Below are positions 5,553-55,910 of a stretch of DNA of 64,000 nt, piece after piece (positions within the stretch are counted from its first letter, which is position 1; the number at the start of each line of letters is the position of its first letter). Origin of the DNA: an uncultured Spirochaetota bacterium (GTDB taxonomy: Bacteria > Spirochaetota > Brevinematia > Brevinematales > JAOACQ01). The translations under genes were made by a program, and so were the position numbers. Below the pieces are notes generated by a model. It saw only the letters and a list, made by a program, of their open reading frames with translations, did no database searches and was not told the DNA's origin. The stretch is from assembly GCA_963768055.1 (NCBI GenBank), contig CAVYGN010000001.1, forward strand, positions 928,001-992,000, given 5' to 3'.

Positions 5553-5735
5553 CTAATCAACAGCAATACAATTTACGGGACATTGGCTGGCCGCATCCTG
5601 CGCCAACGATTTGTCATAATTGGGAAGGTTTTTAACATGAGCTTTACCGTCCGCTTCAAGCTCAAAAAGATCCGGATAAACGCTTTCACATACTCCGCAT
5701 CCTATACAGGTTTCGAGATCAACTACTACAGCCAT
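5553..5735 (-). CDS. Single-cluster ferredoxin
   Basis: CIGCGVC...CPVNCI, 60 aa; GGAGG RBS upstream. Confidence 0.9.
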   Translation of the reverse strand: MAVVVDLETCIGCGVCESVYPDLFELEADGKAHVKNLPNYDKSLAQDAASQCPVNCIAVD

Positions 5736-5808
5736 GATCGCCTCCTACCGATTTAAATGATCAAAATTTTAACATGAATGAAAAAAATAATCAAAGATAT
5801 GAGCTTTA

Positions 5809-31586: not shown

Positions 31587-31642
31587 ATGGGTAACTATCC
31601 GCGAAGGAGGGCCGCTAGATGGAAGCAGATGTGATGACGACT

Positions 31643-32845
31643 CTAATGATTTAATGATTTTAACCATCTATCAATTAGATTAAACACTTCATTATTACTA
31701 TCGTAAACTTTATTAAAATGTTCTCTTGATTTGTCAAATGCCTCTTTTGCTTCATCTTTTTTATTCAATTTTACATAATAAATCCCTTTATACAAAAATA
31801 GATTTCCGGACGCTTCATCATTACTTGAAAATTTGATTATCATATTCGAATAAAATTTGTCCAGATCATCATATCTTTTGAATTGTATATAATCGCTATT
31901 TATCAGACTTAGCAACTCGGGAAAATCATACATATTGCCAAATGCTTCTTCACAAATTAAATAAGCTTTATCAAATTCGTTTTGTTTTAAATAAATAATA
32001 ATTTTTCCGTTGTAGCTTAAAAAATCTTTAGGGTCTTGTTTTATCGCTTGATCGATATCTTTTAATAAATTTTCATATTCATTCAAATTAATATATGCAT
32101 TTGCCGCCAGAATAGCGGCATCTTTTTTATAATAAAAATCCTGATATAATTCAAAAGAATTTCTTGAATATATAATAACATTATTAAAATTTTTTATCTG
32201 ATAATATGCATACGCCAAATTATAATTAGCATCAGCATTTTTTTTATTCATTTCTACTGTATTTGATAAATATTGTATAGCTTTTTGAAAATTGTTATTT
32301 AATAAATATGTCATGCCTATGTAAAACGAAGATATATCATCAAATTTCTTTAAATCTTCGGCTTTTAGCAAATTTTCCCGGGATAAATTGATAAGCTCCT
32401 CATCATTTTTAAGCCATTGTTTGTAATATTTTGAATGCACTTCATAATAATAGCACCCCAATGAATAATATAAATCAGCATTATCCGGATATTTTTTAAT
32501 TAAATTTGATAATATATCTTCAACTTTTAAAGGGTACAAAACAGAAGAACCGCTTGACATCCTTATTTTATATAAATCATCATCCGGCCCTAAGTTGCTG
32601 AAAGAAAACAATTCATGCATTATACTTTTTGAAAAATACTTAAGAGCAATATCAACTTTTTTCACCACAATTACCGGATTTTCATTATTCGGATCTTTTT
32701 CTTTTAAAATTTCAAATGCGGATTGATATTGTCTGTTTGAAATCAATTGATCTGCATCAGAAATAATGCTTTTTACATTTTCTTCACAGAATAAAGATGA
32801 AATGAGGATTAAATTAAACGAAACTATCATTAAAATTTTATTCAT
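31643..32845 (-). CDS. Secreted/lipoprotein TPR protein, AT-rich
   Basis: Signal peptide ending SSLFC, TPR repeats; visibly more AT-rich than flanks. Confidence 0.75.
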   Translation of the reverse strand: MNKILMIVSFNLILISSLFCEENVKSIISDADQLISNRQYQSAFEILKEKDPNNENPVIVVKKVDIALKYFSKSIMHELFSFSNLGPDDDLYKIRMSSGSSVLYPLKVEDILSNLIKKYPDNADLYYSLGCYYYEVHSKYYKQWLKNDEELINLSRENLLKAEDLKKFDDISSFYIGMTYLLNNNFQKAIQYLSNTVEMNKKNADANYNLAYAYYQIKNFNNVIIYSRNSFELYQDFYYKKDAAILAANAYINLNEYENLLKDIDQAIKQDPKDFLSYNGKIIIYLKQNEFDKAYLICEEAFGNMYDFPELLSLINSDYIQFKRYDDLDKFYSNMIIKFSSNDEASGNLFLYKGIYYVKLNKKDEAKEAFDKSREHFNKVYDSNNEVFNLIDRWLKSLNH

Positions 32846-33109
32846 ATTTTTCTCCGATTAGTTGTATATTATTTGTTAATCTCCTCCAGCATTCCATCCA
32901 TCGATTCCTTTTAAATTCTTATGACTCATTATACATCTAACAATTTTTTCGGGCAAGGCATTGTGATTTTATCATTATTGAAATAATAGATTTTAAGGTG
33001 TTTAAGGGGAGGACCGATCGCGAAGGAAATCTGCAGATGACCCAGATTGCACAGATGAGCGGGGGGCCAAACATAGTTTATCAAAAAACCGTTTGCAAGG
33101 GAACAAAAG

Positions 33110-38927: not shown

Positions 38928-41900
38928 ATGTTTATTTTTAAACGGGCCCTTATTTTTTCTCTGGCAGCTTTGGTGTTCTCTTCCATATATCCTCTCGAAA
39001 AGGTAAAAGTAATTTATTTGCAGAAACTGGACAGCGGAAGCGACTTTTCCGAGGGAGGATTTTACAGGAGAGGCAATCTATATGGGGAAGGCGGGCAGCT
39101 TACCATTTCTTTTGATAAGCCCGTATTTAAATTATCGGACATTGACGCTATGAAAAGTGAAATACAGAAAAAAATCAAGCTCAAAATTACCCCTGAAATT
39201 AAAGGCGAATTCAGGCCTATAGGAACCCAGCAGGCGGCTTTTGTATTCAGGCAAAAACTGAAACCCTCTACCCGGTATGTGGTTGAAATTAACGTGGAGG
39301 AAATAAAATCGATCGACGGCGGGAATGTGACCGTTTTAATTAATCATATAAAGCTTGAGAACGGTCAGTTTGAATTCATGACTGAAAAATTGAGGGTTCT
39401 TAATTTACGGACTGGGGAAAATCTTGACGATCCGATATTTGTATTTTTTAGCTGGCCCGTCGATCCCAATAATTTGAAAAAAGAATTAAAAATAACGGAA
39501 GGATCAGTTTTAAATATCGAATATTCCATATTCTCCGTCATAAACACAAACTATATAGAAAGCAACGGGTTAACCTACGGTTACATCTATAAAAACCCGA
39601 GGGCTTTTGAAATATTGACTGCAAAGAGGAAACCCGGAAGTCAGTATTCCATAAGTATAAGCCAGGACCTGCATCCAATAGACGGGGAACTTGGTATGGA
39701 TAGGGAGTATGAATATTCTTTTAATACTTATAGTCCCCTGAAATACATTGACATTTCAACTGGCGAGTATGATTTTATCAACCAGTCGAAAACTTTCCAC
39801 CAGGATTCTGAAATCTATTTCCGTTTCAACAACGAACTGGACCAGCGGGTAAATTTAAAAAATTCAATAACCGTCGACCCGCCTGTCAAACATTTGAATT
39901 ACCAATATAGCGGCAAATCTATAATTGTTACTGCAGATTTTACAGGGGGGCAGAACTATCATATAAAAATCATCCCTCAGGTCAAGGATAAGTACGGCCA
40001 GCTAATCAACGGACCTGTCGAAGCGGATATTCCAATTGAGCATTCTTATTCTATTCTTGGAATACCTACCGGGTACATGGTGATGGAAAATTATATCCCT
40101 ATGATCCTGCCTTTGAAAATCCGGAATATCGATAAAGTGGATTTTTATTATACAATATGCCGGACCAAGGAAGATATTGTTAATTATATCAGCCGGCCTC
40201 CAAGTGAAGATGAATTCATGAAAAGCGCCAAATTGAAACAAATTAAGGTTAAGGAGACATGGGATGTATTTTTCAATTACCGCCTGGACCTTGCCCGTTT
40301 AATACCGGTTAAACCGCCTTTTATGGTGTATATGGCAGAGGCGGATAAAAAAGTCAGCGAGAATAACCAGGACAGGATAAAACGTGCGGGCATAATCCTT
40401 TTTACCGATATGGGTTTGACAGTAAAGAGCGGCCCGTACCAGACTTTAGTATATTTGCGAAGCTTGAAAAGCAACCAGCCTGTATCCGGTGCGAATGTCT
40501 ATGAAATCCTGTTCGACAAGCAGAACAACCCCGATATCAAGTTAAAAGGTAGAACCGATTCAAAGGGGGTCTGCACCTTCCAGGGCGAATTCCCCATGCC
40601 CTTTATTATGGTTGAAAAAGACAATAAGTACTGCATAAATTATGGCAATAATAAGTATTCCAACGATTATGAATATTATGACAACAGTGATTACGGCATG
40701 GATTATAATTCGCTGTTTTATAATAAAATATCCCAAAAAAGCATCATCAACAGCGGCGATTACCGTTCATACAATATGCAAAACGCTATGATATTCACCG
40801 ACCGTTTCCTTTACAAACCGGGTGAAACGATAAATGTTAAGGGAATCATACGTTACCGGTGGGAAGACAGGTGGAATACAACCGAACAGGAAGGCTCTTC
40901 ACAACCGATCGAATTTAAAGTTTACAACAGCCGTGATGAAGAAATCACGAATACGGCCGTACAGCCGGATGCATGGGGATCTTTCCATTTCAAGATTAAT
41001 TTGAAAGATTCCGATCCGACAGGTTATTACAGGATCAGTTCCACCAATTATATCGAGTGCAGTTTCAGTGTCCAGGATTTCAAACCGGCAAAAGCCGAGA
41101 TGAGGATCATTCCAAAGAAAACCGAATATGCCTGGGGGGATAATTTTGAAGCGGACCTTATTCCCTGGTACCTTTTCGGCGCGCCTGTTATCAAACCCGT
41201 TGTGTATGATGTAAGCGTCCAGCCGATAGAATTTATAAGTTCAAAATATCCGGATTATCAGTTTTCAAGGCCTGCTGAAGACCAGGGCCAGGAACGCCGC
41301 GATTACAGTTTTACCCTGATGTCAGGCACGGATTTGCCCGACAGCTCCGGGAAGTTGTCGATAACCAAACTTATTAAAAACGATATATTTTTCGGTGATG
41401 CAGGCATTATCATATCGGCTAATACGGAACTTGACGATAAATCCAGGATTTACGGGAACAGGGCCGACATTACAGTCTTTAATCCGGTCCATGTCGGCAT
41501 CAGGGTTAATCCTTATTTTGTCAATGCCAATAAAGAATTTAAAATAGATCTTATTGCAGTCGACAACAATGATAATCCTGTAAAAAACCAGGATGTCAAA
41601 ATGGAAATTGACAAGGTAGATTGGAAATCCTACCAGAAGGTGGGCGTCAACGGCAGGCTGGAATGGTATTCCGAGAATACTAAAACCAGGGTAAAAAGCG
41701 CCGACCTGCAGATTGGGAAAGAAGAGTATCCGCTGACCATCAATGAACCGGGATTTTATGAAGTAAAAGTAACATCAAAAATCCGCAGTCATGATATGGT
41801 AAGCCATGGTTCTTTTTACGTGTTGGGACCGGGCTGGGTAGGCTGGTCTATGGATAACAGTTATACTATAAGCCTTGACAGCGATAAAAAGGCGTACAGG

Positions 41901-44660
41901 GTCGGTGATACGGCGTATGTCCTTGTTAAAAATCCCTTCAAATCCGCACATGCCTTGATAACGATGGAGAGGGAAAAGATTTATGAAATCAGACAGGAAG
42001 AAATCACCGACAGCATGGCGATGATCCCTATAAGGATCACAAAAGAAAATATACCGAATATATATGTTTCAGTTATGCTCTTTTCAGGAAGGACCGGGAC
42101 CAACCAGGTTAAAAATGATACGGATTTAGCAAAACCAAGCTACCGCATCGGATATATCGATCTTCCTGTTTATACTGCAGAAAAAAGCCTCAATATTAAA
42201 ATAATCCCGGACAGAGACAATTTCAAGCCGGGAGAAAATGCCGGGATATCTTTCGAAGTAAAAGATTATAAAGGGAATTTAGTACCGGAGGCTGAACTGA
42301 CTATATCTGTTGCCGATAAAGGCGTTTTAAACCTTGTCAATTATAAATTGCCCAACCCCCTGGATAACTTCTACGGCCCGAGAAGGCTTTCTGTTTTTAC
42401 CAGCGAAATGAGGGAATGGATATACGGGCAGCGCTATCTTGCCGAGAAAGGTGAAGTTGTAGGCGGGGATGGTTTCAAGGACGAAAACCTCGGAATGGGA
42501 ATGATAGTGCCCAGGATGAATTTTAAATATACGGCCTTTTATACTAATAAAATCGTTGTCACCGGCGGAAAGACAAACATTGATTTCACCCTTCCGGACA
42601 ATCTGACAACCTGGAAGATAATGGTCGTATCCCAGACCAAGGACTCAAGTTTCGGGTACGGGGAGTCACAGTTCAGTGTAAAGAGGCCCCTGATGATTTT
42701 GTCGACGCTGCCGAGGATGGTCAGGAATCTTGATTATATTGAAGCTGGAGTGATGATCTTTAATTATACTGAAAAAGGGGGGTATGTTACAGTTGCAATA
42801 AGCTGCGACCAGCCGATGAAATTTTTGTTCCCTTTATTGACAAATGTTTACATTGATAAAAATAAGTCGAAAGAAGTCAAGTTCGCTTTTAACGTCCCTG
42901 CAATTCAGGCGGAGGAAGCTAAATTTACCATTTCAGGAAAAGTCAACGGAGCTTCCGACGGAGTTAAGGAAACAGTCTGGATAAGAAATCCCATGATCCT
43001 TGAAACAACGGCGCTTTATGAGAAAACCACAAACAAGGCTGATGAAAAAATATCTATTACCAGCAATGTGATTCCGGAGTTAAGCAGGGTCGAGTTTAAT
43101 CTTTCGCAGACTGCTTTTAATGAACTTTCAGGATGCCTTGATTACCTGGTCGAGTATCCTTACGGCTGCCTTGAACAGAAATCGTCAAGCATTTTACCAT
43201 TGATTCTCGGAGAGGATGTAATTCTTAAGTATGATTTGCTTAAAAATAAAACCGGCAGGGATTTAAGGCAAGTCGTTCAAACGATTTTAGAAGAAATGCC
43301 GAAATACCTGGGGGACGATGGTTTTAAATATTGGACGGACAGCATCAATTCAACCAATCCCTACCTCACTGTTTACGCCGGTTTTGTCCTCTGTATGGCA
43401 AGGTACCATAAATATTCAATACCCGAAGATTTTTATAACAGGGTCCGGGACCTTGTGAAAGATTATGCCGACGGCAGCGGCAAATATGAAAGCTGGTTCG
43501 AAATTTCACCTTATTATCGCGCGCTTGTAAAAAATTACGCATTATTTGTCGCGTCCATGAACGGTTATGAAAATGTCGGGTCGATAAAAAACGCTTACGC
43601 AGAACTGAAGGATAAGCTTAAGGATAACCTGTCCGCGCAGGCATACCTGTTAATAGCAGTGAGTAAATATAAAAATTTCGACGGTAAAGACATTATTATT
43701 AAGGATATATCGGATAGATTGCTGGCCTCGGCCCAGCTTGACACATCTACATGCTATTTTGCCGGATTTGAAAATTGGGACTGGTTTTATTATAACAGGA
43801 CTATTTCGACGGCGATTGTTTTACAGGCCCTGCTGGAAGCCGGGATCAATTTTAAAGATAGTCACAAAGTAATAAGATGGCTGACCCTGGCGCGCAAGCA
43901 GGGGCGATGGGCCACGACGCATGAGAATGCCATGGTTTTCTGGGCATACAATACATACCTCGGGCAGTTTGAAAAAGAAGAACCGAATTTTGAAGCTACC
44001 GGCGATATAAATAAAAAAGAAGTAATCAAAACCCTGTTCGCTTCGAGGAATACACCTGTTTATACGACAAATTATTCCCTTACGGATGAAAAATCGCCAG
44101 AACTCGATATAGAGCTACGGAAAAACGGAACCGGGATCCTTTACTATAACATCCGTTACCAGTATGCCCCTGTCAATCCTGTTTATAAAAGGGAAATGGG
44201 TTTTAGCCTGGAAAAACAAGTCCTCGATTATGAAACCGGCAAAGAGATCACGGACAATAACTATATAAGGGGTAGGAGATATATAATTAAATTGAACGTA
44301 TTTTCTGAAAAAACGCGTAATTTTGTCGTCCTTGACGACCAGCTTCCCGCTGGTTTTGAACCAGTCAATCTTGAGTTTGCAACCGAGCAGGCTGAAACTG
44401 AAGGAACAAAATCCGCGGTTGAAGGCAATGACCGGGGAAACATGTGGTGGTGGGGAATTTTCAACCACCGTGAGCAGTACAGGGACCGGGTTATATTTAC
44501 GGCCGATTATTTAATGGCCGGGAAGCATGAATTGTCTTACGTTGTCCGGGCTGCTACAACCGGAAAATTCAGTCAGCCCCAATTAAAAGTGGAGGAAATG
44601 TACGATCCTGAAACTTTCGGATCGCTGTCGCAGCCGGGTATAACAGTTAAAGAAGAATGA
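38928..44660 (+). CDS. Bacterial alpha-2-macroglobulin with thioester motif
   Basis: 1910 aa; TDRFLYKPGE, LPDNLTTW, YPYGCLEQ and EEMYDPE motifs. Confidence 0.93.
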   Translation: MFIFKRALIFSLAALVFSSIYPLEKVKVIYLQKLDSGSDFSEGGFYRRGNLYGEGGQLTISFDKPVFKLSDIDAMKSEIQKKIKLKITPEIKGEFRPIGTQQAAFVFRQKLKPSTRYVVEINVEEIKSIDGGNVTVLINHIKLENGQFEFMTEKLRVLNLRTGENLDDPIFVFFSWPVDPNNLKKELKITEGSVLNIEYSIFSVINTNYIESNGLTYGYIYKNPRAFEILTAKRKPGSQYSISISQDLHPIDGELGMDREYEYSFNTYSPLKYIDISTGEYDFINQSKTFHQDSEIYFRFNNELDQRVNLKNSITVDPPVKHLNYQYSGKSIIVTADFTGGQNYHIKIIPQVKDKYGQLINGPVEADIPIEHSYSILGIPTGYMVMENYIPMILPLKIRNIDKVDFYYTICRTKEDIVNYISRPPSEDEFMKSAKLKQIKVKETWDVFFNYRLDLARLIPVKPPFMVYMAEADKKVSENNQDRIKRAGIILFTDMGLTVKSGPYQTLVYLRSLKSNQPVSGANVYEILFDKQNNPDIKLKGRTDSKGVCTFQGEFPMPFIMVEKDNKYCINYGNNKYSNDYEYYDNSDYGMDYNSLFYNKISQKSIINSGDYRSYNMQNAMIFTDRFLYKPGETINVKGIIRYRWEDRWNTTEQEGSSQPIEFKVYNSRDEEITNTAVQPDAWGSFHFKINLKDSDPTGYYRISSTNYIECSFSVQDFKPAKAEMRIIPKKTEYAWGDNFEADLIPWYLFGAPVIKPVVYDVSVQPIEFISSKYPDYQFSRPAEDQGQERRDYSFTLMSGTDLPDSSGKLSITKLIKNDIFFGDAGIIISANTELDDKSRIYGNRADITVFNPVHVGIRVNPYFVNANKEFKIDLIAVDNNDNPVKNQDVKMEIDKVDWKSYQKVGVNGRLEWYSENTKTRVKSADLQIGKEEYPLTINEPGFYEVKVTSKIRSHDMVSHGSFYVLGPGWVGWSMDNSYTISLDSDKKAYRVGDTAYVLVKNPFKSAHALITMEREKIYEIRQEEITDSMAMIPIRITKENIPNIYVSVMLFSGRTGTNQVKNDTDLAKPSYRIGYIDLPVYTAEKSLNIKIIPDRDNFKPGENAGISFEVKDYKGNLVPEAELTISVADKGVLNLVNYKLPNPLDNFYGPRRLSVFTSEMREWIYGQRYLAEKGEVVGGDGFKDENLGMGMIVPRMNFKYTAFYTNKIVVTGGKTNIDFTLPDNLTTWKIMVVSQTKDSSFGYGESQFSVKRPLMILSTLPRMVRNLDYIEAGVMIFNYTEKGGYVTVAISCDQPMKFLFPLLTNVYIDKNKSKEVKFAFNVPAIQAEEAKFTISGKVNGASDGVKETVWIRNPMILETTALYEKTTNKADEKISITSNVIPELSRVEFNLSQTAFNELSGCLDYLVEYPYGCLEQKSSSILPLILGEDVILKYDLLKNKTGRDLRQVVQTILEEMPKYLGDDGFKYWTDSINSTNPYLTVYAGFVLCMARYHKYSIPEDFYNRVRDLVKDYADGSGKYESWFEISPYYRALVKNYALFVASMNGYENVGSIKNAYAELKDKLKDNLSAQAYLLIAVSKYKNFDGKDIIIKDISDRLLASAQLDTSTCYFAGFENWDWFYYNRTISTAIVLQALLEAGINFKDSHKVIRWLTLARKQGRWATTHENAMVFWAYNTYLGQFEKEEPNFEATGDINKKEVIKTLFASRNTPVYTTNYSLTDEKSPELDIELRKNGTGILYYNIRYQYAPVNPVYKREMGFSLEKQVLDYETGKEITDNNYIRGRRYIIKLNVFSEKTRNFVVLDDQLPAGFEPVNLEFATEQAETEGTKSAVEGNDRGNMWWWGIFNHREQYRDRVIFTADYLMAGKHELSYVVRAATTGKFSQPQLKVEEMYDPETFGSLSQPGITVKEE

Positions 44661-44667
44661 CTGATAT

Positions 44668-44712
44668 GGTATCTGGGCGGTACCGGGATCGAACCAGTGC
44701 CTGCGGCCCTGC
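44668..44712 (-). repeat. tRNA-Val 3'-half copy (distal att-like site)
   Basis: GGTATCTGGGCGGTACCGGGATCGAACCAGTGCCTGCGGCCCTGC matches the tRNA-Val(GAC) 3' end with the variable loop replaced. Confidence 0.85.
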
Positions 44713-44827
44713 TTGTGAACTCGTTAGCTGTACTCCGGAAAAAATAAAGAAAATTCTAATGGACCATCAAGTGTTTTGCATATATATTTATTTCTCAATA
44801 TAATATTGGTCATAAGGCGGTGAAGCT

Positions 44828-45535
44828 GTGAAAAGAATATATTTCCCCATGTTAATCGCTCTTTGGGTTTTAATCGATTCCTGTTCCGGCTCTCCGGGTC
44901 CTTCTTCCGGCGGCTCCGGCAGCGGAGGTTCTCCAAGTTCTATAGTAATTTCCGCAAATGGAACGGGAAACAATGGCGGCTACTACTATTCATACTGGAG
45001 CAATGGCCAAGGGACGGTGAAAATGACTTTGGGCTCCGGCGGGGAGTACAGTGTTGACTGGCAAAATTGCGGGGATTTCACCTGCGGTAAAGGCTGGTCT
45101 ACCGGGAGTGCTCAGAGTATAACCTACAATGCCGCTGCCTGGTCGCCGTCCGGAAACGCTTATCTGGCTGTCTACGGTTGGACGACAAGCCCGCTAATAG
45201 AATATTACATTGTTGATAGCTGGGGCAGTTGGAGGCCTGCCTACGTTCATGTGGGAACAGTTGTTTCTGATGGGGGTACATACGATATATATACGAATGT
45301 GCAGGTAAACCAGCCTTCCATTGTCGGCAATGCGACTTTTACGCAGTGGTGGAGCGTCCGGCAGTCGGCGAGAACAACCGGGGGCGACAACACCATAACT
45401 ACTGCCAACCACTTTAACGCGTGGAAGAGCCTCGGAGCGACTCTGGGTACTTTCAATTACCAGATAGTGCTTGTAGAGGGATATGAAAGCAGCGGGTTTG
45501 CCGACATCACGGTAGGCGGCACCGGTACGAATTGA
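44828..45535 (+). CDS. GH11 endo-1,4-beta-xylanase, probable lipoprotein
   Basis: [26 protein letters not shown] (nucleophile), QWWSVR and EGYESSG (acid/base); Cys after hydrophobic leader, Gly/Ser linker. Confidence 0.93.
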
Positions 45536-45665
45536 CAATCGTAGCGTAAACGCCATCGGCACTGTCTATCATTTTAAATGGCTCGTTTGCCCTTGAAATA
45601 GTAAAAAATAAAACCTGCAGGTAAAGATAAAAGTCATATCATGTTCTTTGAGGTGAAGGGACTGA

Positions 45666-46370
45666 TCACATTCGGTGAGATTCAGTAATACGATCATTCC
45701 CGTCATTGACTTTTACGCCCATAATTAAAAGCCACAAAGTAAGTGAAAATTCCGCAATCGCACTAACCACCCAGCATGGGTAAGATATTACTTCGTAGCG
45801 CGGAAAAAGGAAAAACTGAAGAAACCATATAAGAACGGCAAAACAATCGATTATCAGCAATATGCCCAAAATTCCGGGAAGGAAGCCCGACTTGAAAACC
45901 AAATAACCGAGAGGAAAAAGCCAGGCGCCATAAAATATCTGGGCGATAATAAATCCATTTTTGTACAAATTAATAGATAACATCGCTTGCGCCTGTAACT
46001 GAGCTGCCTGGAATACCTTCAGGTAATCGGCGCCGTTTAAAAGCAGAAGACCAGCAAATAGATTAAGCATACTTAAACACTGTATTGCGACACCGACCAA
46101 GTTTAGCAAAACGAACAGTAAAGCGAGATTTTTATTAACAGATTTTAATAACACGTATAAAGCCCAGGCAGCCAAAAGGAAAAAAACAGCCGAGAGAAGA
46201 CCGGTTATAAAACCGATACGGAATAGCAATTCATGAGTCATTATGTTATTGACTACTATTGCGGCATCTCCAAATGAAAAGCGGCCGAATACATCTGCAA
46301 AGATCGAAGTAACAATGAACATAAGATAAAAGAACCCTGCGATTCTCGCGGTTTTTTTCTTAGAATTCAT
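45666..46370 (-). CDS. DUF4386-like membrane protein
   Basis: ARIAGFFYL start, IFYGAWLFPLGYLVFKSGFLP..LG, E...LWLLI.G pattern. Confidence 0.75.
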   Translation of the reverse strand: MNSKKKTARIAGFFYLMFIVTSIFADVFGRFSFGDAAIVVNNIMTHELLFRIGFITGLLSAVFFLLAAWALYVLLKSVNKNLALLFVLLNLVGVAIQCLSMLNLFAGLLLLNGADYLKVFQAAQLQAQAMLSINLYKNGFIIAQIFYGAWLFPLGYLVFKSGFLPGILGILLIIDCFAVLIWFLQFFLFPRYEVISYPCWVVSAIAEFSLTLWLLIMGVKVNDGNDRITESHRM

Positions 46371-46530
46371 TTTCTATCCTCCTTTTTTGATATAAACCGA
46401 GATTTCCCAAATGGCTCATCTTTTTTACCATTCTCGAAAGCTCTTTCAATTCCATAAAAATTATATAAAGACCAAAACATCATGTCAACCGGGCGAATTG
46501 CTTTATAATAAATCAAAATCGAAACGGAAG

Positions 46531-46806
46531 GATTATCATCGCATTATCATCAATGATGGAATCGACGGAGAAAAGACCTTTAATTGTCACACTTAATAAT
46601 CCGTGAAATCCTCCAAAATTATCCCGCAGTCAATGCTTGAGAAAAGTGACTATTGATATGATATTATGAAAAGTTACGATTTTACAGCTGCTGCAGCCCG
46701 GACAAATCAGTGTCAATCCGCGGAATCGGTGGTTTCAACCCCGGTGTTCCCGGGATATGTGGGCGGTACTGGGATCGAACCGGTGCCTGCGGCCCTGCGT
46801 GTCGAG
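46531..46806 (-). repeat. About 275-bp diverged duplicate of 50716-50989 containing the tRNA-Val 3' half
   Basis: Direct alignment by eye; 8 substitutions in the 102 bp shared with the other copies. Confidence 0.9.
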
Positions 46807-46857
46807 TTTCTTGCATCGGAAGCAATTAAATTGCCTTCGAAAAATACCTGAAAATAG

Positions 46858-46887
46858 TGGTACAATAATGGTACAAGTTTGGTACAA
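46858..46887 (+). repeat. TGGTACAA x3 direct repeat, 11-bp period (integrase arm-site-like)
   Basis: Copies at 46858, 46869 and 46880, about 50 bp from the tRNA fragment. Confidence 0.75.
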
Positions 46888-46994
46888 CTCGAAATTAATT
46901 ATAATCATGATAATTAATATTTTAAAAAATCAAACCTTATCAGCTTGTTTTATTTCATAGGTATAATTACAATAATTAATAAAAAAGGAAAATT

Positions 46995-47261
46995 ATGCCT
47001 ACAATATCGATGTTTTTTGGAATTATAATTCGCATGTATCTTGGTAAAAAGGAGCATAATCCGCCTCATTTTCATGCGTATTATCAGGAATTTAAAGGTA
47101 CATTTGATATAGAAAAATGTTCATTAATTGATGGAAATATCCCGGTTAAACAAAAAAAGTTAATAGAAGCCTGGGCTGAACTTCATAAAGAAGAACTTCT
47201 TGCAGACTGGAACTTAGCTGTCAATAACGAATTACCTTATAAAATAGAACCGCTTAAATAG
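46995..47261 (+). CDS. DUF4160-family protein (putative TA component)
   Basis: MPTISMFFGIIIRMY..EHNPPHFHA.Y...WAELHKEELLADW...IEPL. Confidence 0.88.
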   Translation: MPTISMFFGIIIRMYLGKKEHNPPHFHAYYQEFKGTFDIEKCSLIDGNIPVKQKKLIEAWAELHKEELLADWNLAVNNELPYKIEPLK

Positions 47262-47272
47262 AGGGGTGTAAT

Positions 47273-47527
47273 ATGTACATTGGGATAAAAGCAGTTCAAC
47301 CAGTTGAAAACCATCATTTGCTAATAACTTTTGATAATGGAGAAGAAAAGATTTTTGATATGAATGAATATCTGGATAAAGGAATATTTGCCGAATTAAA
47401 GAATGAAAATTTATTCAGAACAGTTCATGTTATTTTTGATACAATAGAATGGGAAAATGGAGCGGACTTAGACCCCGAATTAATTTATCAGGAAAGTAAG
47501 AAATTAGTAGATGCCTTGACTCAATAG
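47273..47527 (+). CDS. DUF2442-family protein (partner of DUF4160)
   Basis: LLITFDNGEEKIFD...TIEWENGADLDPELIY. Confidence 0.88.
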   Translation: MYIGIKAVQPVENHHLLITFDNGEEKIFDMNEYLDKGIFAELKNENLFRTVHVIFDTIEWENGADLDPELIYQESKKLVDALTQ

Positions 47528-47804
47528 TAATTCATTAATTACAGAAATTTAATTATTATCTGATCGCAAGCGATGATCTCCTGGCGAGTTACGCGCTTGT
47601 TGCGAAATTTCGCCTTGATGAACTGCGAGAACTCGGCTTTCAGGATGCCATATAAGACTTTGTACTTTTTATTCCCGGTAATTTATCACATATTACTTTT
47701 GCAACGCCGACTATTTGTTGAATTTCATCGAAATACTGATTCATGATTCTGACGCTTTTACCACAGAAATAACGACAGGAAAACCGAACCACGGTGAAAA
47801 GTGG

Positions 47805-47928
47805 ACCGCTGCTGCAGCCCGGGCAAATCTGTGTCAATCTGCGGAATCTGTGGTTTCAACCCCGGTGTTCCCGGGGTATCTGGGCGGTACTGGGATCGAA
47901 CCAGTGCCTGCGGCCCTGCGTGTCGAGC
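47805..47928 (-). repeat. tRNA-Val 3'-half copy plus downstream leader
   Basis: 47805-47906 is identical to 50871-50972 (102 bp), then the CCTGCGG variant and CCCTGCGTGTCGAGC. Confidence 0.92.
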
Positions 47929-48040
47929 TATCCGCCCCGGCTTTAATAAGCGGATTAGCGCACTCTTTATTGCCGTATTCCATGGCCCAGATAAAAGCGG
48001 TGTTTCCGTTAAAATCACTTGCATTTATATTACCGCCGCT
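47927..48040 (-). pseudogene. Ankyrin-repeat gene remnant
   Basis: Translates SGGNINASDFNGNTAFIWAMEYGNKECANPLIKAGADS, a canonical ankyrin repeat; no start codon; runs into the tRNA fragment. Confidence 0.7.
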
Positions 48041-48232
48041 TTTCAGATGCGAGCTTATAAAGTTGCTGTCATTGAGTCTTCGGTATTTCCGGTAGTGAAA
48101 ACTCCCGGTGATGCGGTCATTCCTTTCCAGATCCGGTTGATAAAAACCGCACCGATTAAGGCTTTCCCTCCAAAAGATTTTAGAGCATTTTACCCGGATG
48201 TGTTGGACGTCTCTTAGTGATAGTCTTCGTAA

Positions 48233-49570
48233 TCAATTGATGCTGACGGTTATATAAACGCTGCCTATACTTGCAGAACTAGAGCCCAATGGTTTTGCTA
48301 TAAAAATCAAAAAATCGTCTTTCTTCAATTTAACGGTTATGGATTGGTTTTTAGACTTTTTTTCAGCCATTTCAGGTGTAGATTCTCCCAAATCGTTGCC
48401 CAGTTGATAATCATAGAATATCGGGATATCCACATTCCAGAAAGCATTCCGATTGGTATAAACCAGGATTTTAGTCCGATAATTTTGTGCGCTGATGTCA
48501 TGGTATGCGCCTCTATTAAATTCAAATTTATAAATGCCGGCTACTTTTGCAATGTATTCTGTCCCTTTTTTATTGGCTGATAAAATCTCGATTTCTTCAT
48601 TTTGATTATTTTCCCCTTTCGCAGATACGGAGTTTTTAAAAACCACAGCCTTTGTCTGCCCTTCCGATATAGTTATATTAGTGAATGACAATGATTCATC
48701 TCCCTTCCTTAATTCTATCCTGTTCCCTTTTCCGGCTTCGATACCCGGGATTATAAGCTCGCCGGAATCGTCAGTTTTGCCGGTCTTTTTCCCGTTAAGA
48801 TAAACGTCGATGCCGCCCTCCATCGTCTCTACCATCAATTCCCCGGATGGGTTGTATACAAGCTCGTTCGTTTTTCCGCTCTCGATCTGCACTATCTTCC
48901 TGAGGGCTTCCACGTCTGAATTCTCCTGCTTCAGGCTTATATCGATAGATTGGCCGGCTATGAACTTGTCGAAGTAACCGTCCAGGCTGTCTACAGCCTT
49001 TACGAAGGAGTCGTTTATGAAAATCCTGTACTTTACGTTTTTCGGCTTTACTGCAAGCCTTAAATATCCGAGCGAAATGGCCTTTCCGACTAAAAGGCCG
49101 GAAACGTCGAGTATCATTTTATCGACGGTATCGAAAATTTCAAGGCCCGCGTCCCCCTTGTAAGTCCTTGTAAACAATACCTGGCCGTTGACAACGTTAT
49201 AAACGAAAACGTTTATTGTTATAATCCCTGTTTTGTCATTAAGTGTATAATCACCGGTGATAACCTGTTCAGTTGAAAAATGCTGGGCGATATTGATAGC
49301 CCTGCTTCCTTCAAGCTCCTTAAGGCTCCAGAAATTTGTGCCCCCTGCTATTTCTTCCACATCCTTATAAGGAGTAATGTTTTTAGATATCTTTGAGAGA
49401 AAGGTGGATAATGATTTTGTCATGAGTATGTTTATGTTGTCCTGGTTCGATTTTCCCCTGTTTATGAATCCGGCGACAGTCGCGGATTTCATCTCAAGCT
49501 GCTGGGGACGCATAAAACCGGCACATATGAATAGTATTATTAAGACGGTCAGTATCTTTTTAATTGCCAT
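48233..49570 (-). CDS. Secreted protein with TolB-N/CsgG-like N-domain and PEGA-like repeats
   Basis: Signal peptide; VITGDY...INVFVYNV..GQV; GELMVET..GIDVYLNGKKTGKT. Confidence 0.6.
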   Translation of the reverse strand: MAIKKILTVLIILFICAGFMRPQQLEMKSATVAGFINRGKSNQDNINILMTKSLSTFLSKISKNITPYKDVEEIAGGTNFWSLKELEGSRAINIAQHFSTEQVITGDYTLNDKTGIITINVFVYNVVNGQVLFTRTYKGDAGLEIFDTVDKMILDVSGLLVGKAISLGYLRLAVKPKNVKYRIFINDSFVKAVDSLDGYFDKFIAGQSIDISLKQENSDVEALRKIVQIESGKTNELVYNPSGELMVETMEGGIDVYLNGKKTGKTDDSGELIIPGIEAGKGNRIELRKGDESLSFTNITISEGQTKAVVFKNSVSAKGENNQNEEIEILSANKKGTEYIAKVAGIYKFEFNRGAYHDISAQNYRTKILVYTNRNAFWNVDIPIFYDYQLGNDLGESTPEMAEKKSKNQSITVKLKKDDFLIFIAKPLGSSSASIGSVYITVSIN

Positions 49571-49809
49571 AAACCCTTCTTTAAAATATTTTATTCAGGA
49601 TTTCTCATTTAGCATATTGTAATTCCAAAAATCCGAGTCCCAATGCATTTTACCAATATTTTATCAACCTTATCAGGGCATGTCAACATAATTTAAGTCT
49701 CTTTCCAGTCTAAGACGGACTGATAAACAGTAAAATTCATTCTTTTCATAAAATTCGACAACAGGTTACCCATTGTTTTTTTTATTACATTCAAATCCTT
49801 ACACAGCTT

Positions 49810-50640
49810 CCAATGCCAAATCCCGAAGCCGGTCTATCTTTTCGAGTATTACTTCAAACATTTTCTTCGGAACAGCAACTTCAGCCATCTGGAATTGTAT
49901 ACCGAGCATGGCTTATCACCTTTGCACCGATCTTGACCAGCTTATCACGGAGCGTTGTCAATGACCAATGCCGAATAGACATTTGCAAAGCAACTCGCCG
50001 AAGAAAGTTCCCAAGGTTATATGCAAGAGCGAACAACTGCAATCTCACCTGATTGTCAGCAAAGTCGTGGCATGACAGTTTCGTCCATTTGATAGCGTTC
50101 TCGCCTTGCTTGATCCACTGCTCCGCTGTTCCTCTCATGTTGAAGAACCTGACTACCTTTTTCAGCTGCCATCGGAGGTTGTTTACGATAAAGCCGACGC
50201 GAGGGAACAATTCTCAACGATGCCATTCAACCTTCGCGATCACACGGCGTCCATGTTCCCAGCTAACTGCCTTGTAGAAGAAGCAGGAAGCCGAATCGTG
50301 TAAAGAAAATCCTTTGATTCGAGGTATTCATAAATATCCGGATTCGCGAAAGCGGCATCACCCCTGAAGTAGCGATCCCGCTTCAAGGTCGCCGGACTGG
50401 TTGAAGCAGCCTTACATTCCATAGCACGACCGCCGACAACTCGCCGCATTGCCGGATCAATATACAACCTGTCGGCATTGTTTGTGTCTTCATATCCAGC
50501 AATCCTTGAGAAAACAGACTGTCGGAGTTGAGCCCCAAGGGAATGGCGTGTTTTTACCAGGGCGGCTATCAGAATGACAGCATTCTGAAATTTTTGTTAG
50601 TCCTAAAGCATAGTCAAGTTCTCGGTATGCAAGCAATTCA
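49810..50640 (-). mobile_element. Degraded IS1380-family transposase remnant
   Basis: Fragments in several frames: LLAYRELD.ALGLT, RQSVFSRIAGYED, FRGDAAFANPDIYEYLE, RGTAEQWIK, NQVRLQLFALAYNLGNFLR and QMAEVAVP; internal deletions and frameshifts. Confidence 0.85.
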
Positions 50641-50946
50641 TACCTCAAGCTTGGAAAAAGCATGCATCCCGGGTGAAATTCATCGAATATGTTTCATGGA
50701 GTTTTTCAATAACATGATTATCATCGCATTATCATCAATGATGGAATCGACGGAGAAAAGACCTTTAATTGTCACACTTAATAATCCGTGGAATCCTTTC
50801 AAAATTATCCTTCAGTCAATGCTTGAGAAAAGTGACTATTGATATGATATTGTGAAAAGTTACGATGATTACCGCTGCTGCAGCCCGGGCAAATCTGTGT
50901 CAATCTGCGGAATCTGTGGTTTCAACCCCGGTGTTCCCGGGGTATC

Positions 50947-51021
50947 TGGGCGGTACTGGGATCGAACCAGTGACCCCCTGCGTGTCGAGCAGGTACTCTG
51001 AACCAACTGAGCTAACCGCCC
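50947..51021 (-). tRNA. tRNA-Val(GAC)
   Basis: GGGCGGT-TA-GCTC..GAGT-A-CCTGC-TCGACAC-GCAGG-GGGTC-ACTGG-TTCGATC-CCAGT-ACCGCCC-A; full cloverleaf, CCA not encoded. Confidence 0.95.
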
Positions 51022-51031
51022 TTTATCATTG

Positions 51032-51105
51032 TGGTCGATGCCGGGCTCGAACCGGCGACCTCATGCATGTGAGGCATGCGCTCTAACCAGCTGAGCTAAT
51101 CGACC
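51032..51105 (-). tRNA. tRNA-Val(CAC)
   Basis: GGTCGAT..CATGC-CTCACAT-GCATG..GCCGG-TTCGAGC-CCGGC-ATCGACC-A; full cloverleaf. Confidence 0.95.
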
Positions 51106-51131
51106 GGGAATCAGGCCTCCGGCAGGGTGTA

Positions 51132-51160
51132 ATTATATTATAGAAAAATTTTTTTATCAA
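51132..51160 (-). promoter_or_regulatory. Sigma-70 promoter of the tRNA-Val pair
   Basis: TTGATA-N17-TATAAT followed by a GC-rich discriminator-like stretch. Confidence 0.7.
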
Positions 51161-51265
51161 ATTTAAAAGTTGATTTAAGGATCAAAATTTACATGGAGAC
51201 ACTGAGCCGCGGAGATTTATCCGTGTAAAACCCCGGTAGGCCCGAAGTTAGAAAGCAGGATGGAA

Positions 51266-51835
51266 TTATTTGACTAACAGCTTATCGGCCTTCCAGAACA
51301 TCAAAAGGGATTCGAAGGATGAAATCGAGGAAGCGTTATCGTAAATTTCAACCTGGTACGAGCCGTCTTTCTGGGAAACGATATCTAAAAGGCCCTTGCA
51401 ATTTTTCCTTAGCGAAGCCAGGAACAGCCCCAATAGTCCCGCATCTTTATCTGTCTCTGCCTTTAACAAATATATCTTTTTCCCGGTGTTAACCAATTCG
51501 CTTTCGGAAGGCGGGGCGTTAAGGTCCCCGTTTTTCCGGCAGAGCCATTTAACATAGCTTAGCTGGGCGCTTGTCAGATCATGGAACCACAAACCTACAA
51601 TATTGCCGTTCGAACGGACGACTGAAGCGGGCAGGGTCTGGTCGCCCACTATGATTTTGACCTTGTCGCCGGGCACAAGAAGACTGTTGACCCTTATGCC
51701 TATCCCCTGGGGGGATATGTCGATAACCTCGCAGGAATCGACTTTCCCGTTTCTTTCATAGGAAACTTGCAGATTGACCGCGGCCCTCGGCAGGGCCCTT
51801 ATATCTCCGGTTTCGGCCATATTTAAATTATTCAT
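51266..51835 (-). CDS. PilZ-domain protein
   Basis: RALPR (RxxxR) and DISPQG (DxSxxG) c-di-GMP-binding motifs. Confidence 0.85.
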   Translation of the reverse strand: MNNLNMAETGDIRALPRAAVNLQVSYERNGKVDSCEVIDISPQGIGIRVNSLLVPGDKVKIIVGDQTLPASVVRSNGNIVGLWFHDLTSAQLSYVKWLCRKNGDLNAPPSESELVNTGKKIYLLKAETDKDAGLLGLFLASLRKNCKGLLDIVSQKDGSYQVEIYDNASSISSFESLLMFWKADKLLVK

Positions 51836-53829: not shown

Positions 53830-55188
53830 ATGCTCAATTTTTATTTAATTATCATTGTTTTGGGTCTGGCGGCAGGCTCTTTTCTAATGATCCGATGGCT
53901 TATGGGATTTGTAAAGCCCGATATTGTCACAAATAGAATTTCCAGGCTCATTGCCCTTAAAAATTATAGCGAGGCCCTGGATACCGGCCTCAAGCTGATA
54001 AAAGAAAAAGCCTCGTCGTATTCTTTGCTCCAGAATATAGCAAAGGCTTACGAAGGGCTTTACCAGTACAGGCATGCGATAGAATTTTATGAGAAAAGCA
54101 TTGTATTACTAAAAAGGGAAAGCCAATTGTCCCTGAGGCACGATATCTACAATAAGCTTGCAGAATTATATATGATTATCCGCGAACCGGATAGCGCCCT
54201 CGGATATTACAATCTTATTCTAAGGGAAAATAGAAACAATATGAAGGCGCTTTTTTTTTCAGCCAAGCTTCTTCACTTTCAAAAACAGCTGCAGAAATCG
54301 AGGGAACGGCTTGAAATTTACATTAAGGCCAGGCCTAATGAAATCGTTCCGCTCCTGCTTCTTGCAAATGTTTATTACGAACAGGGGGAATATCCGAAAT
54401 CCCTCGGAATACTGGATGTGATCGGCAGACAAACCGATGAAATGGCATCGCTGCGCGATGAAGAAATTTTATTTCTGCAGGCTAAAAATCAAGTCGGGCT
54501 GAAAAATTTTTCGAAAGCGCTGCCGTATCTTAAAAACCTTCTTGACAGGGGCTCGATGACCGGGGAAGCTCTCCCTTTATATATAATCGCCCTTGTTCGC
54601 GATAAAAAAATCAACGCGGCCATGATTCTTTATAGCGACAACCAGTCGGTTCTGGGGTCCAGGAAAATGGATGTAATGTATGAGATAGCAGAGGCCTATT
54701 TCGACGAGGGCGATATCTATAAAGCCCTGGATACCTGGAAAAAGGTGTCCGAAGAGAACCCGAATTTTCTCGACATTAAAAATATTATGTCCAGGTATAA
54801 GGTTCTATTTGAAAATGTTGCTCTTGCGAAATATTTCACGGCCGATGAGAACGAATTCCAGGAATACGTACTTAAGAAGTTCCAGGCCCCGATGAATGCT
54901 GTTATCGAGCGGGGAAGAGACTATTGGATCATTAAAAGCGGAAAGGAGGCGGTGGTCCTTTACCGCAAAGCCGGCCAGATATCGCCCGATGCCATGAATA
55001 GAATTACAGATACCCTGAAAGGAAATTCTCTTTACGGCATATATTCCTATATTTATACATTATTCGGAGTTGAGGAAAGCTGCAAGGAGTATACCTTTTA
55101 TAAAAGTTCTAAGGAAATATCCGGAAAAGATTTTGTGGATTTTTTTATTAACGATAATATCGCCGAACCGGAAGAAAGAGGTGAATGA
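53830..55188 (+). CDS. Membrane-anchored TPR protein (paralog of 27011..28393)
   Basis: N-terminal TM, TPRs and shared C-terminal domain. Confidence 0.75.
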   Translation: MLNFYLIIIVLGLAAGSFLMIRWLMGFVKPDIVTNRISRLIALKNYSEALDTGLKLIKEKASSYSLLQNIAKAYEGLYQYRHAIEFYEKSIVLLKRESQLSLRHDIYNKLAELYMIIREPDSALGYYNLILRENRNNMKALFFSAKLLHFQKQLQKSRERLEIYIKARPNEIVPLLLLANVYYEQGEYPKSLGILDVIGRQTDEMASLRDEEILFLQAKNQVGLKNFSKALPYLKNLLDRGSMTGEALPLYIIALVRDKKINAAMILYSDNQSVLGSRKMDVMYEIAEAYFDEGDIYKALDTWKKVSEENPNFLDIKNIMSRYKVLFENVALAKYFTADENEFQEYVLKKFQAPMNAVIERGRDYWIIKSGKEAVVLYRKAGQISPDAMNRITDTLKGNSLYGIYSYIYTLFGVEESCKEYTFYKSSKEISGKDFVDFFINDNIAEPEERGE

Positions 55189-55910
55189 TTATGGAAAAAG
55201 AAAAAATACTGATTGTCGAAGATGAAATTATTATAGCCAGGGATACGGAATCGAGGCTTAAGAAAATAGGTTACAATGTTACAGGCATAGCCGAGACCCA
55301 TGAGGAGACTTTGACATTGATTGAAAAAGAAACGCCGGATCTGATCTTGATGGATATTAAAATAAGGGGGCAGGTAGACGGGATCAGCTCCGCAATCGAA
55401 ATATGGGAACGATTCAAAATACCCGTAATATTCCTGACCGCGTATTCCGACGACGTTACCCTTGCCAGGGCAAGGTTATCGAATTTCTACGGCTTCCTTA
55501 TAAAACCGATAAAGGAGAACGAATTTAAAATTGCGGTGGAAAACGCGCTTTACAAGGCTCATGGCGATTCTTTAATGAAATTATCGGCGGACTATTTTTT
55601 ATCAATCCTTGAAAACCTTACCCTGGGGATCATTGCATCCGATAACGACAATTTCATAGTCTATATGAACGAAAAAGCCTGTTCCTGGCTGGAACTTACA
55701 GAAGAACCTGTCGGGCTCAATATTAACGAGGTTTTCGTTAAAACCGGCGAACCTAAGGAAGAGCCTGATGAATTTCTTAAAAAATCCGTGCAGTTGATTT
55801 TAAAGGGCGGTAAAAAAATAAACGCCTTTTACGGGATTTACAATATTAACTGGAAGAACGAACGCATGGGAACAGTCATTCAATTCATAAAGACTAAGGC
55901 CTGCGGCTAA
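55185..55910 (+). CDS. Response regulator (receiver + PAS-like domain)
   Basis: ILIVEDE, LMDI, FLTAYSD and IKP motifs; PAS-like C-terminus. Confidence 0.88.
   Translation: MIMEKEKILIVEDEIIIARDTESRLKKIGYNVTGIAETHEETLTLIEKETPDLILMDIKIRGQVDGISSAIEIWERFKIPVIFLTAYSDDVTLARARLSNFYGFLIKPIKENEFKIAVENALYKAHGDSLMKLSADYFLSILENLTLGIIASDNDNFIVYMNEKACSWLELTEEPVGLNINEVFVKTGEPKEEPDEFLKKSVQLILKGGKKINAFYGIYNINWKNERMGTVIQFIKTKACG

Follow-up and report, generated by a model that had tools for sequence, protein, structure and literature searches.

Fragments of a tRNA-Val gene and a candidate tandem array of three small, decayed elements in an uncultured spirochaete

Introduction

How did three partial copies of a tRNA gene come to lie downstream of the intact gene, all with the same nine nucleotides in place of the variable loop? 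This question is raised by a stretch of 64,000 nucleotides (nt) from an uncultured Spirochaetota bacterium (positions 928,001 to 992,000 of contig CAVYGN010000001.1, assembly GCA_963768055.1). We will call this stretch the window, and all coordinates count from its first letter. The intact gene encodes tRNA-Val(GAC), and the nine nucleotides are GCCGCAGGC (the 9-mer). An earlier note on this DNA had proposed that incoming elements carry an attachment site that mimics the tRNA, and that the 9-mer forms a mini-hairpin by which this site is recognized, possibly as folded single-stranded DNA.

Here, we describe the anatomy of the locus and weigh several histories for it. On balance, we favor the view that three small elements integrated in tandem at the 3' part of the tRNA-Val(GAC) gene and that the locus is what is left of this array after decay. 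This makes it a further example of a known, ordinary kind of genomic island that is seeded by a tRNA gene. The potential of the 9-mer to form a hairpin is probably incidental; at most, the 9-mer would be part of a duplex core-binding site.

Results

An intact tRNA-Val gene and three displaced fragments

The two tRNA genes that ARAGORN identified are both on the minus strand of the window, and Rfam confirmed each of them (gathering score 29). The sequence of tRNA-Val(GAC) reads ...CTCGACAC-GCAGG-GGGTC-ACTGG-TTCGATC-CCAGT-ACCGCCCA, where GGGTC is the variable loop and ACTGG-TTCGATC-CCAGT is the T arm. The T arm together with the 3' strand of the acceptor stem is found exactly four times in the window: in this gene and in three fragments. 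The fragments have their 3' ends at 47881, 46760, and 44674, and all of them are downstream of the intact gene and on the same strand. All four copies share a block of 31 nt, which begins at the T stem and reaches 6 nt beyond the discriminator base.

The sequence just 3' of the intact tRNA, which we will call flank F, is repeated as well. On the minus strand, these parts follow one another as tRNA-F, cargo A, fragment 3-F, cargo B, fragment 2-F', cargo C, fragment 1, and a gene for an alpha-2-macroglobulin (Table 1). The cargo blocks A, B, and C are about 3.0, 1.1, and 2.0 kb long, and each one opens with flank F and closes with a fragment that contains the 9-mer. We found no repeats among the three cargo blocks besides flank F and the fragments. 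Also, a search of 44000-51400 with Rfam (E ≤ 1) gave the two tRNAs only, and no family covers flank F or the fragments.

Each of the three fragments has GCCGCAGGC where the tRNA has GGGTC, as the earlier note had seen and correctly placed. The 9-mer has four matches in the window, all on the minus strand, as compared to 0.20 expected, and 0 of 100 shuffled sequences reached four. Three of the four copies lie in the context GCAGG-GCCGCAGGC-AC(T/C)GG (44694-44712, 46780-46798, and 47901-47919). The 19-mer context GCAGGGCCGCAGGCACYGG occurs three times, as compared to 0.00 expected. The fourth copy (55899-55907, minus strand) is at the 3' end of a response-regulator/PAS gene (55185-55910), without any tRNA context, and we take it to be a chance match that is unrelated to the island.

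To the left of the 9-mer, homology to the tRNA extends for only 13-14 nt. In fragments 2 and 3, it is lost at the 5' edge of the anticodon loop, and in fragment 1 the anticodon-loop homology is degenerate. The 5' strand of the anticodon stem is absent upstream of the fragments, and a comparison of the sequences upstream of the three fragments showed nothing in common beyond these tRNA-like 13-14 nt. We also considered whether the fragments might be native tandem tRNA genes that were truncated later. We rejected this, as all of the fragments share the 9-mer and one left edge.

The exchange lies to the right of the 9-mer

GGGTC is retained in the intact tRNA, and the 9-mer in all three fragments; therefore, any exchange between them must have taken place to the right of the variable region. 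The earlier note had likewise placed the crossover 3' of the hairpin, where it leaves the tRNA intact, and this part of its proposal holds up.

The right-hand sequences are consistent with such an exchange. Apart from the variable region, the tRNA with its flank F and fragment 3 with its flank F are identical over about 130 nt, and the short copy of F is identical to the first ~76 nt that are 3' of the intact tRNA. This near-identity would fit different left parts, one from the chromosome and one from an element, that are joined to the same right part. The junction at fragment 1 also fits: there, homology to flank F ends at GATACC, six bases past the end of the tRNA, and the 3' end of the fragment (44674) is 13 nt from the stop codon of the alpha-2-macroglobulin gene (44660). 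Homology that ends beside an intact core gene is as expected of the original chromosomal junction.

The long copies of the flank are more diverged. Fragment 2 with F' (46531-46806) is 92% identical to the tRNA with F over 278 nt (blastn), and beyond the part that all copies of F share, the copy at 50716-50946 has a further ~175 nt in common with 46531-46759. This similarity is uneven: 46531-46612 is 99% identical to 50716-50797 over 82 nt, while the adjoining 76 nt are only 91% identical. The mosaic suggests that gene conversion may have occurred between repeats that are about 4.2 kb apart.

Flank F contains a G+C hairpin and three CNGATT repeats, which are spaced by 9 and 10 nt. The hairpin and the triplet of repeats are present in three copies each and nowhere else in the window. 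A terminator scan did not call the hairpin as a canonical terminator.

We tried to map the crossover further from polymorphisms in the T stem (ACCGG..CCAGT in fragment 2 and ACTGG..CCGGT in fragment 1). Hybrids across the T loop are possible, but two point transitions explain these differences equally well, and we did not accept them as evidence.

A model for the array

We propose that the elements carried a site composed of 13-14 nt of homology to the anticodon loop and stem, GCCGCAGGC, a block of 31 nt identical to the tRNA, and flank F. At each acquisition, this site would have recombined with the tRNA gene inside the 31-nt block; in later events, the exchange might also have taken place in F. 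The tRNA gene would retain its own 5' part and GGGTC, and it would acquire F behind it. The left half-site of the element, with the 9-mer, would end up beyond the cargo as a displaced fragment; newer units would push the older ones outward. The 9-mer would then be element-side sequence just to the left of the exchanged block. It would never enter the tRNA, and all three units would have inherited it from one lineage of attachment sites. The recombinase would have been lost as the elements decayed, or it would have acted in trans from elsewhere, and later recombination or gene conversion among the repeats would have given rise to the mosaic identities. Of this picture, the anatomy, the lack of a recombinase, the decay, and the place of the exchange relative to the 9-mer are shown by the sequence; we infer that recombination was site-specific, that there were three separate events, and that the 9-mer itself is neutral.

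The locus shares several features with islands at tRNA genes. An intact, regenerated tRNA-Val(GAC) gene is at one end of the island, and displaced 3' fragments of the same tRNA follow toward the other end, in direct orientation. As in arrays of accreted units, the units are in tandem, partial copies of the target lie between them, their cargo is unrelated, and they contain no recombination genes. The usual signature also includes an integrase gene inside each island, which is absent here.

No recombinase, and signs of decay

We compared 57 open reading frames (ORFs) from across the window to Pfam and found no gene for a recombinase (Phage_integrase, resolvase, HUH, or other). For remnants, we scanned all 106 stop-to-stop ORFs of at least 35 amino acids (aa) in 44660-50950 against Pfam (100 small ones, plus six large ones in start-codon form). 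There was no remnant of a recombinase among them; the only related hits were to pieces of an IS1380-family transposase in cargo A. In this pseudogene, positions 43-102, 279-300, and 304-411 of the profile are matched in separate frames.

Cargo A also contains a weak remnant of ankyrin repeats. The frame that follows the TGA of the 445-aa ORF (47834-48232, minus strand) is open for 132 codons, contains the ankyrin match, and crosses fragment 3 into F; it is probably what remains of a gene that was cut at fragment 3. Together with the transposase pieces, this remnant shows that the island is in decay.

The 9-mer as a hairpin

In DNA, GNA-triloop mini-hairpins consist of a C-GNA-G loop that is closed by a short G+C stem. 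The 9-mer, GCC-GCA-GGC, fits this form, with a stem of 3 bp and a GCA triloop. Among all 9-mers in the window, 2.0% have a 3-bp Watson-Crick stem and a triloop, and 0.024% have the C-GNA-G form. The three copies count as a single ancestral event; for one such event this rarity is suggestive, although it was noticed post hoc. An equally good reading of GCCGCAGGC is that it nearly duplicates CGCAGG.

All three fragments form the hairpin in their DNA folds of minimum energy. It is extended to CAG-G-GCC-GCA-GGC-A-CTG in fragments 3 and 1, where the T arm is lost in exchange. The folds of the fragments were no better than those of dinucleotide shuffles (z from -0.64 to +0.78), with an energy model that may omit a special bonus for triloops.

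It had been argued in the earlier note that the 9-mer is conserved even where neighboring bases differ, so that random decay could not account for it. The fragments share 45 columns, and just 4 of these vary. None of the variable columns is inside the 9-mer, and this has a hypergeometric P of 0.395, so the argument fails. Also, the three copies of the 9-mer are identical and hence carry no covariation signal. Between 44600 and 51100, there are 5 matches to the integron core box GTTRRRY and 3 to RYYYAAC, and none of them is within the three fragments.

A role for the hairpin as a recognition determinant, or for folded single-stranded DNA as the substrate of recombination, finds no support in these tests: the folds resemble those of shuffles, the sites lack integron boxes, and the window lacks a recombinase. 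What survives of the tRNA-mimicking site is that the fragments, rather than being copied from the 3' half of the resident tRNA, have a variant from the element side in common; the role of the hairpin within that site is unsupported.

Searches in other genomes and in the literature

The earlier note had suggested searching other genomes for fragments with such hairpins. We scanned 185,579 species-representative genomes, which do not include the window's own genome, with the pattern GCAGGN{6,14}ACYGGTTCGATCCCRGTA. This pattern accepts any 6-14 nt at the variable position and requires an exact T arm; it matches the three sites in the window and does not match the tRNA. There were 11 matching loci, and none of them (0/11) contained the 9-mer. 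According to ARAGORN, two of these loci are intact tRNA-Ala(GGC) genes. The other nine have no tRNA at the match and are lone 3' fragments, from other phyla.

The nine fragment loci have 99 neighboring ORFs of at least 180 aa, and we scanned the 40 that are nearest to the matches. Among these 40, just one locus (L004) has a Phage_integrase ORF beside the fragment. At this locus, from a metagenome-assembled genome of Geodermatophilaceae, the integrase ORF is directly beside a 3' fragment that resembles tRNA-Val (5688-6965), an ordinary attachment site. At another locus (L007, 8256-10030), from a metagenome-assembled genome of an actinomycete (Actinomycetota), a similar fragment and a tRNA-Val(GAC) gene are 1.7 kb apart, on opposite strands.

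We also compared fragment 3 with its flank F to phages and plasmids, using blastn in distant mode. This gave only matches of 29-30 nt at the level of chance (E ~0.01), and none with the 9-mer. The negative result of the genome scan is weak: an exact T arm was demanded, and the lineage appears to be thinly sampled. Close relatives of this organism do appear to be scarce, because the 445-aa protein from cargo A has just 16 relatives with E ≤ 0.001 among 5.8 billion proteins, its own cluster has a single member on a single contig, and identity to the nearest protein outside of it is 70%.

As far as could be tested, and with low power, the variant occurs only in this genome. The earlier note had coupled such a restriction with the idea that all three copies trace to one damaged fragment that was duplicated; this is not favored, as the cargo is unrelated. 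In a literature search that was not exhaustive, we found nothing in print on the replacement of a variable loop in an attachment site. The part of a paper on archaeal pT26-2 plasmids that comes closest deals with the long variable arms that tRNA-Ser and tRNA-Leu have by nature, and not with a replaced loop (PMC6972569).

Cargo genes and the rest of the window

The cargo genes are on both strands. The unit that makes up cargo B consists of a gene with DUF4160 and a partner with DUF2442, and the family matches suggest that these form a toxin-antitoxin-like pair that takes up the whole 1.1-kb unit. Between this pair and fragment 2, there is an array of three exact TTGTACCA repeats. This is possibly a protein-binding array, either an arm site of the element or an operator of the toxin-antitoxin genes.

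In cargo C, a promoter scan identified a sigma-70-like match (12/12) at 46488-46460, ahead of the DUF4386 gene. A second promoter-like match in the cargo (11/12) is at 49686-49658. The G+C content of 45001-46000 is 46.8%, which is among the higher values for the window (range, 26% to 48%).

The large ORF in cargo A matches no family in Pfam or NCBIfam. It has a hydrophobic N-terminus, and we take it to be a lineage-specific, surface-type protein. Several paralogues from this family share contigs of 1.89 Mb and 2.74 Mb, and a second paralogue is on the window's own contig of 1.80 Mb.

Outside of the island, the G+C content falls to 31.0% and 26.2% across 31001-33000, over a 400-aa TPR-repeat gene (31643-32845, minus strand). 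This stretch may be foreign DNA that is unrelated to the tRNA island. The window also contains the gene order CheA-CheW-CheX-CheY; the best match of CheX in the PDB is 3hzh, a protein from Borrelia. By these features, the host looks spirochaete-like.

Table 1. Features of the island and its borders, in order along the minus strand
Feature	Position	Strand	Remarks
tRNA-Val(CAC)	51031..51105	-	Upstream neighbor of the target tRNA, outside the repeats; ARAGORN; Rfam tRNA, 69.5 bits
tRNA-Val(GAC), intact	50947..51021	-	Presumed integration target; ARAGORN; Rfam tRNA, 62.0 bits
Flank F, long form	50716..50946	-	Directly 3' of the tRNA; GATACC, G+C hairpin CCCGGGAACACCGGGG (50926-50941), three CNGATT repeats (50892-50914)
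IS1380-family transposase pseudogene, in pieces	49881..50596	-	Cargo A; Pfam DDE_Tnp_1_4; NCBIfam transpos_IS1380 below cut-off
445-aa ORF	48233..49570	-	Cargo A; hydrophobic N-terminus; small lineage-specific paralogue family
Ankyrin-repeat remnant, weak	47923..48043	-	Cargo A; Pfam Ank, E = 4e-4, 21.0 bits (cut-off 21.1)
Fragment 3	47881..47928	-	tRNA-Val anticodon loop to discriminator base; GCCGCAGGC (47906-47914) replaces GGGTC
Flank F, short form	47805..47880	-	Hairpin 47860-47875; three CNGATT repeats 47826-47848
DUF2442 gene	47273..47527	+	Cargo B; Pfam; 11 nt downstream of the DUF4160 gene
DUF4160 gene (DhiT-like type II toxin)	46995..47261	+	Cargo B; Pfam; NCBIfam toxin_DhiT, 85 bits (cut-off 100)
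Three exact TTGTACCA repeats	46858..46887	-	Spacing 11 nt; 52-81 nt upstream of fragment 2; sole copies in the window
Fragment 2	46760..46806	-	Layout as in fragment 3; 9-mer 46785-46793; T stem ACCGG...CCAGT, with a C-A mismatch
Flank F', long form	46531..46759	-	Hairpin 46739-46754; three CNGATT repeats 46705-46727
DUF4386 gene	45666..46370	-	Cargo C; Pfam
Glycoside hydrolase family 11 (xylanase-type) gene	44828..45535	+	Cargo C, outermost unit; Pfam Glyco_hydro_11, E = 8.9e-72
Fragment 1, outermost	44668..44712	-	GCAGG, 9-mer (44699-44707), T arm ACTGG...CCGGT, acceptor 3' strand, GATACC
Alpha-2-macroglobulin gene	38928..44660	+	Convergent, outer border of the island; complete to the C-terminal MG10; Pfam bMG10 positions 1-131 of 131

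Discussion

Weighing the explanations

We consider a decayed tandem array of three integrated elements to be somewhat probable, and several observations weigh against it. Homology continues for as much as 275 nt past the tRNA; a stretch of this length is unusual for site-specific attachment and would also allow integration of the RecA type. No common left arm is visible, because the sequences upstream of the fragments share only the tRNA-like 13-14 nt. The left edge of the homology is at the anticodon loop, which is where integrases of the anticodon type cross over, and this misfits an exchange in the T arm. We found no integrase gene or remnant of one in the island or the 64-kb window, and neither an intact relative of the elements nor the 9-mer site turned up elsewhere (11 loci, phages, and plasmids). 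Some of these observations would be accounted for if there were just a single, ancient integration scar, made of a 9-mer fragment and F, and if the further units spread by RecA-type homologous recombination and without an integrase. This could happen by Campbell-type insertion or by exchange between the arrays of different strains, by way of the 150-320 nt of homology in a fragment with its F. We think that this history is unlikely. The homology that reaches 275 nt past the tRNA, as against only 13-14 nt to the left of the 9-mer, speaks for it, and the 9-mer would always be distal simply because nearly all of the homology is to its right. The mosaic of identities (100% between the tRNA with F and fragment 3 with F, and a 99% stretch next to a 91% one) points to recombination or gene conversion between repeats; also, the window has no recombinase, and the 9-mer was not seen in the other genomes that were scanned. 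But the cargo blocks are unrelated, which excludes simple duplication; each block would still have had to arrive already joined to a module of fragment and F. And the first event would still be site-specific, as the outermost flank is homologous for only 6 nt after the end of the tRNA.

The two remaining histories seem far less probable to us. In one of them, GCC-GCA-GGC would be a selected recognition determinant of a tRNA-mimicking attachment site, perhaps read as folded single-stranded DNA, and the cassettes would be handled as in integrons. The rarity of the C-GNA-G form (0.024% of 9-mers), the presence of the hairpin in all three folds, and its extension in fragments 3 and 1 are what this idea would lead one to expect, and so are units that are small and lack an integrase. 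Many integron cassettes carry toxin-antitoxin pairs, and one of the units here holds a toxin-antitoxin-like pair. Yet the fold energies do not stand out from the shuffles (z of -0.59, +0.78, and -0.62 for the three fragments), the invariance of the 9-mer is not significant, and none of the 5 GTTRRRY or 3 RYYYAAC boxes is at a fragment. Both strands carry cargo genes, and promoter-like sites are present within the cargo; the window encodes no recombinase, be it IntI, HUH, or another, and no second genome with the site turned up among those searched. We consider this idea very improbable. We give equally little credence to a crossover at the anticodon loop, which would mean that the 9-nt variable region was once part of a working tRNA-Val(GAC) and of the older elements, and that the newest element contributed the present, normal 3' half. 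When we joined the 5' part of the tRNA to the 3' part of each fragment in silico, ARAGORN called a tRNA-Val(GAC) of 79 nt for all three of the chimeras, and fragments 2 and 3 do lose their homology at the 5' edge of the anticodon loop. Still, this history needs a functional class I tRNA with a variable region of 9 nt. Class I tRNAs have variable regions of 4-5 nt. It also needs a clean swap of 9 nt for 5 between right halves that are otherwise 100% identical, and the 5' strand of the anticodon stem was not retained upstream of the fragments. The anticodon sublocation itself is common enough, as it is used by 2083 of the 3919 islands tabulated in the Islander paper (PMC4383910).

What the locus may be useful for

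On a small scale, the locus shows clearly how a variable island can build up beside a tRNA gene, here with three unrelated cargo blocks. In this setting, the 9-mer is useful as a marker: it separates the displaced half-sites of the elements from the resident tRNA, and it places the exchange to its right. Wider importance would follow only if recombination turned out to depend on the hairpin, of which we saw no sign. If a selected hairpin were real, then the locus would be an integron-like cassette system on a tRNA scaffold, in which each cassette lacks a recombinase and ends in a 3' half of tRNA-Val with a C-GNA-G mini-hairpin as its variable region. An enzyme acting in trans would recognize the folded strand and would insert and remove these cassettes beside the tRNA.

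Comparison with known systems

Like integron cassettes, the units are small, lack an integrase, and each end in a repeated site with the potential to form a hairpin, and one of them consists of a toxin-antitoxin-like pair. Unlike in integrons, there is no intI or attI in the window, and there are no R or L core boxes at the sites. Integron cassettes are mostly promoterless and point one way, whereas the cargo here is on both strands and has promoter-like sites. Also, the repeated site is the 3' part of a tRNA, unlike attC.

Cis-mobilizable elements and their tandem accretion were reportedly described by Pavlovic et al. in 2004. The units at this locus resemble such elements in that they are flanked by attachment sites, lie in tandem at the same site, and have no recombination genes; unlike in the cis-mobilizable case, no mobilizing neighbor with an integrase is present in the window.

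Most islands of the Islander type are far larger than the units of 1.1-3 kb described here. In the sections of the Islander paper that define the signature, an island is recognized by a regenerated tRNA gene together with a displaced fragment, and 1836 of the 3919 islands have their crossover in the region of the T stem (PMC4383910). Our locus is like these tyrosine-integrase islands in having a regenerated tRNA gene and displaced 3' fragments in direct orientation, and an exchange at the T stem or its junction is common among them. But for a tandem array, Islander demands that every island have its own integrase gene, and there is none here.

Tycheposons, from Prochlorococcus, are described as tandem elements that are separated by partial tRNAs, along with degenerated remnants (https://doi.org/10.1101/2020.12.28.424599). 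As is proposed here, successive integrations at one tRNA push the older elements outward and leave remnants and extra partial tRNAs behind. As characterized in that preprint, tycheposons are defined by a tyrosine recombinase and replication modules and have a cyanobacterial host, whereas neither module was seen here and the host is spirochaete-like.

Of the known systems, the ssrA islands of Dehalococcoides come closest. As the relevant sections of that study describe them, they differ from our locus in that the target is a tmRNA, the repeat is 20 bp, and 16 of the islands have a serine recombinase (PMC3146451). In contrast, the target here is tRNA-Val(GAC), with 31 nt and a long flank in common; upstream of the variant motif, there are another 13-14 nt of homology; and we saw no unit with a recombinase. 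In Dehalococcoides, tandem units are bounded by direct repeats of the 3' end of the target, and a conserved 15-bp motif on the element side, which is beside the repeat and does not align with ssrA, placed the crossover in the T loop (PMC3146451). Fifteen of those islands lack an integration module and were interpreted as either cis-mobilizable or fixed. Our locus has the same combination: tandem units without an integration module, direct repeats of the 3' end of the target, and, in the 9-mer, an element-side motif beside the repeat.

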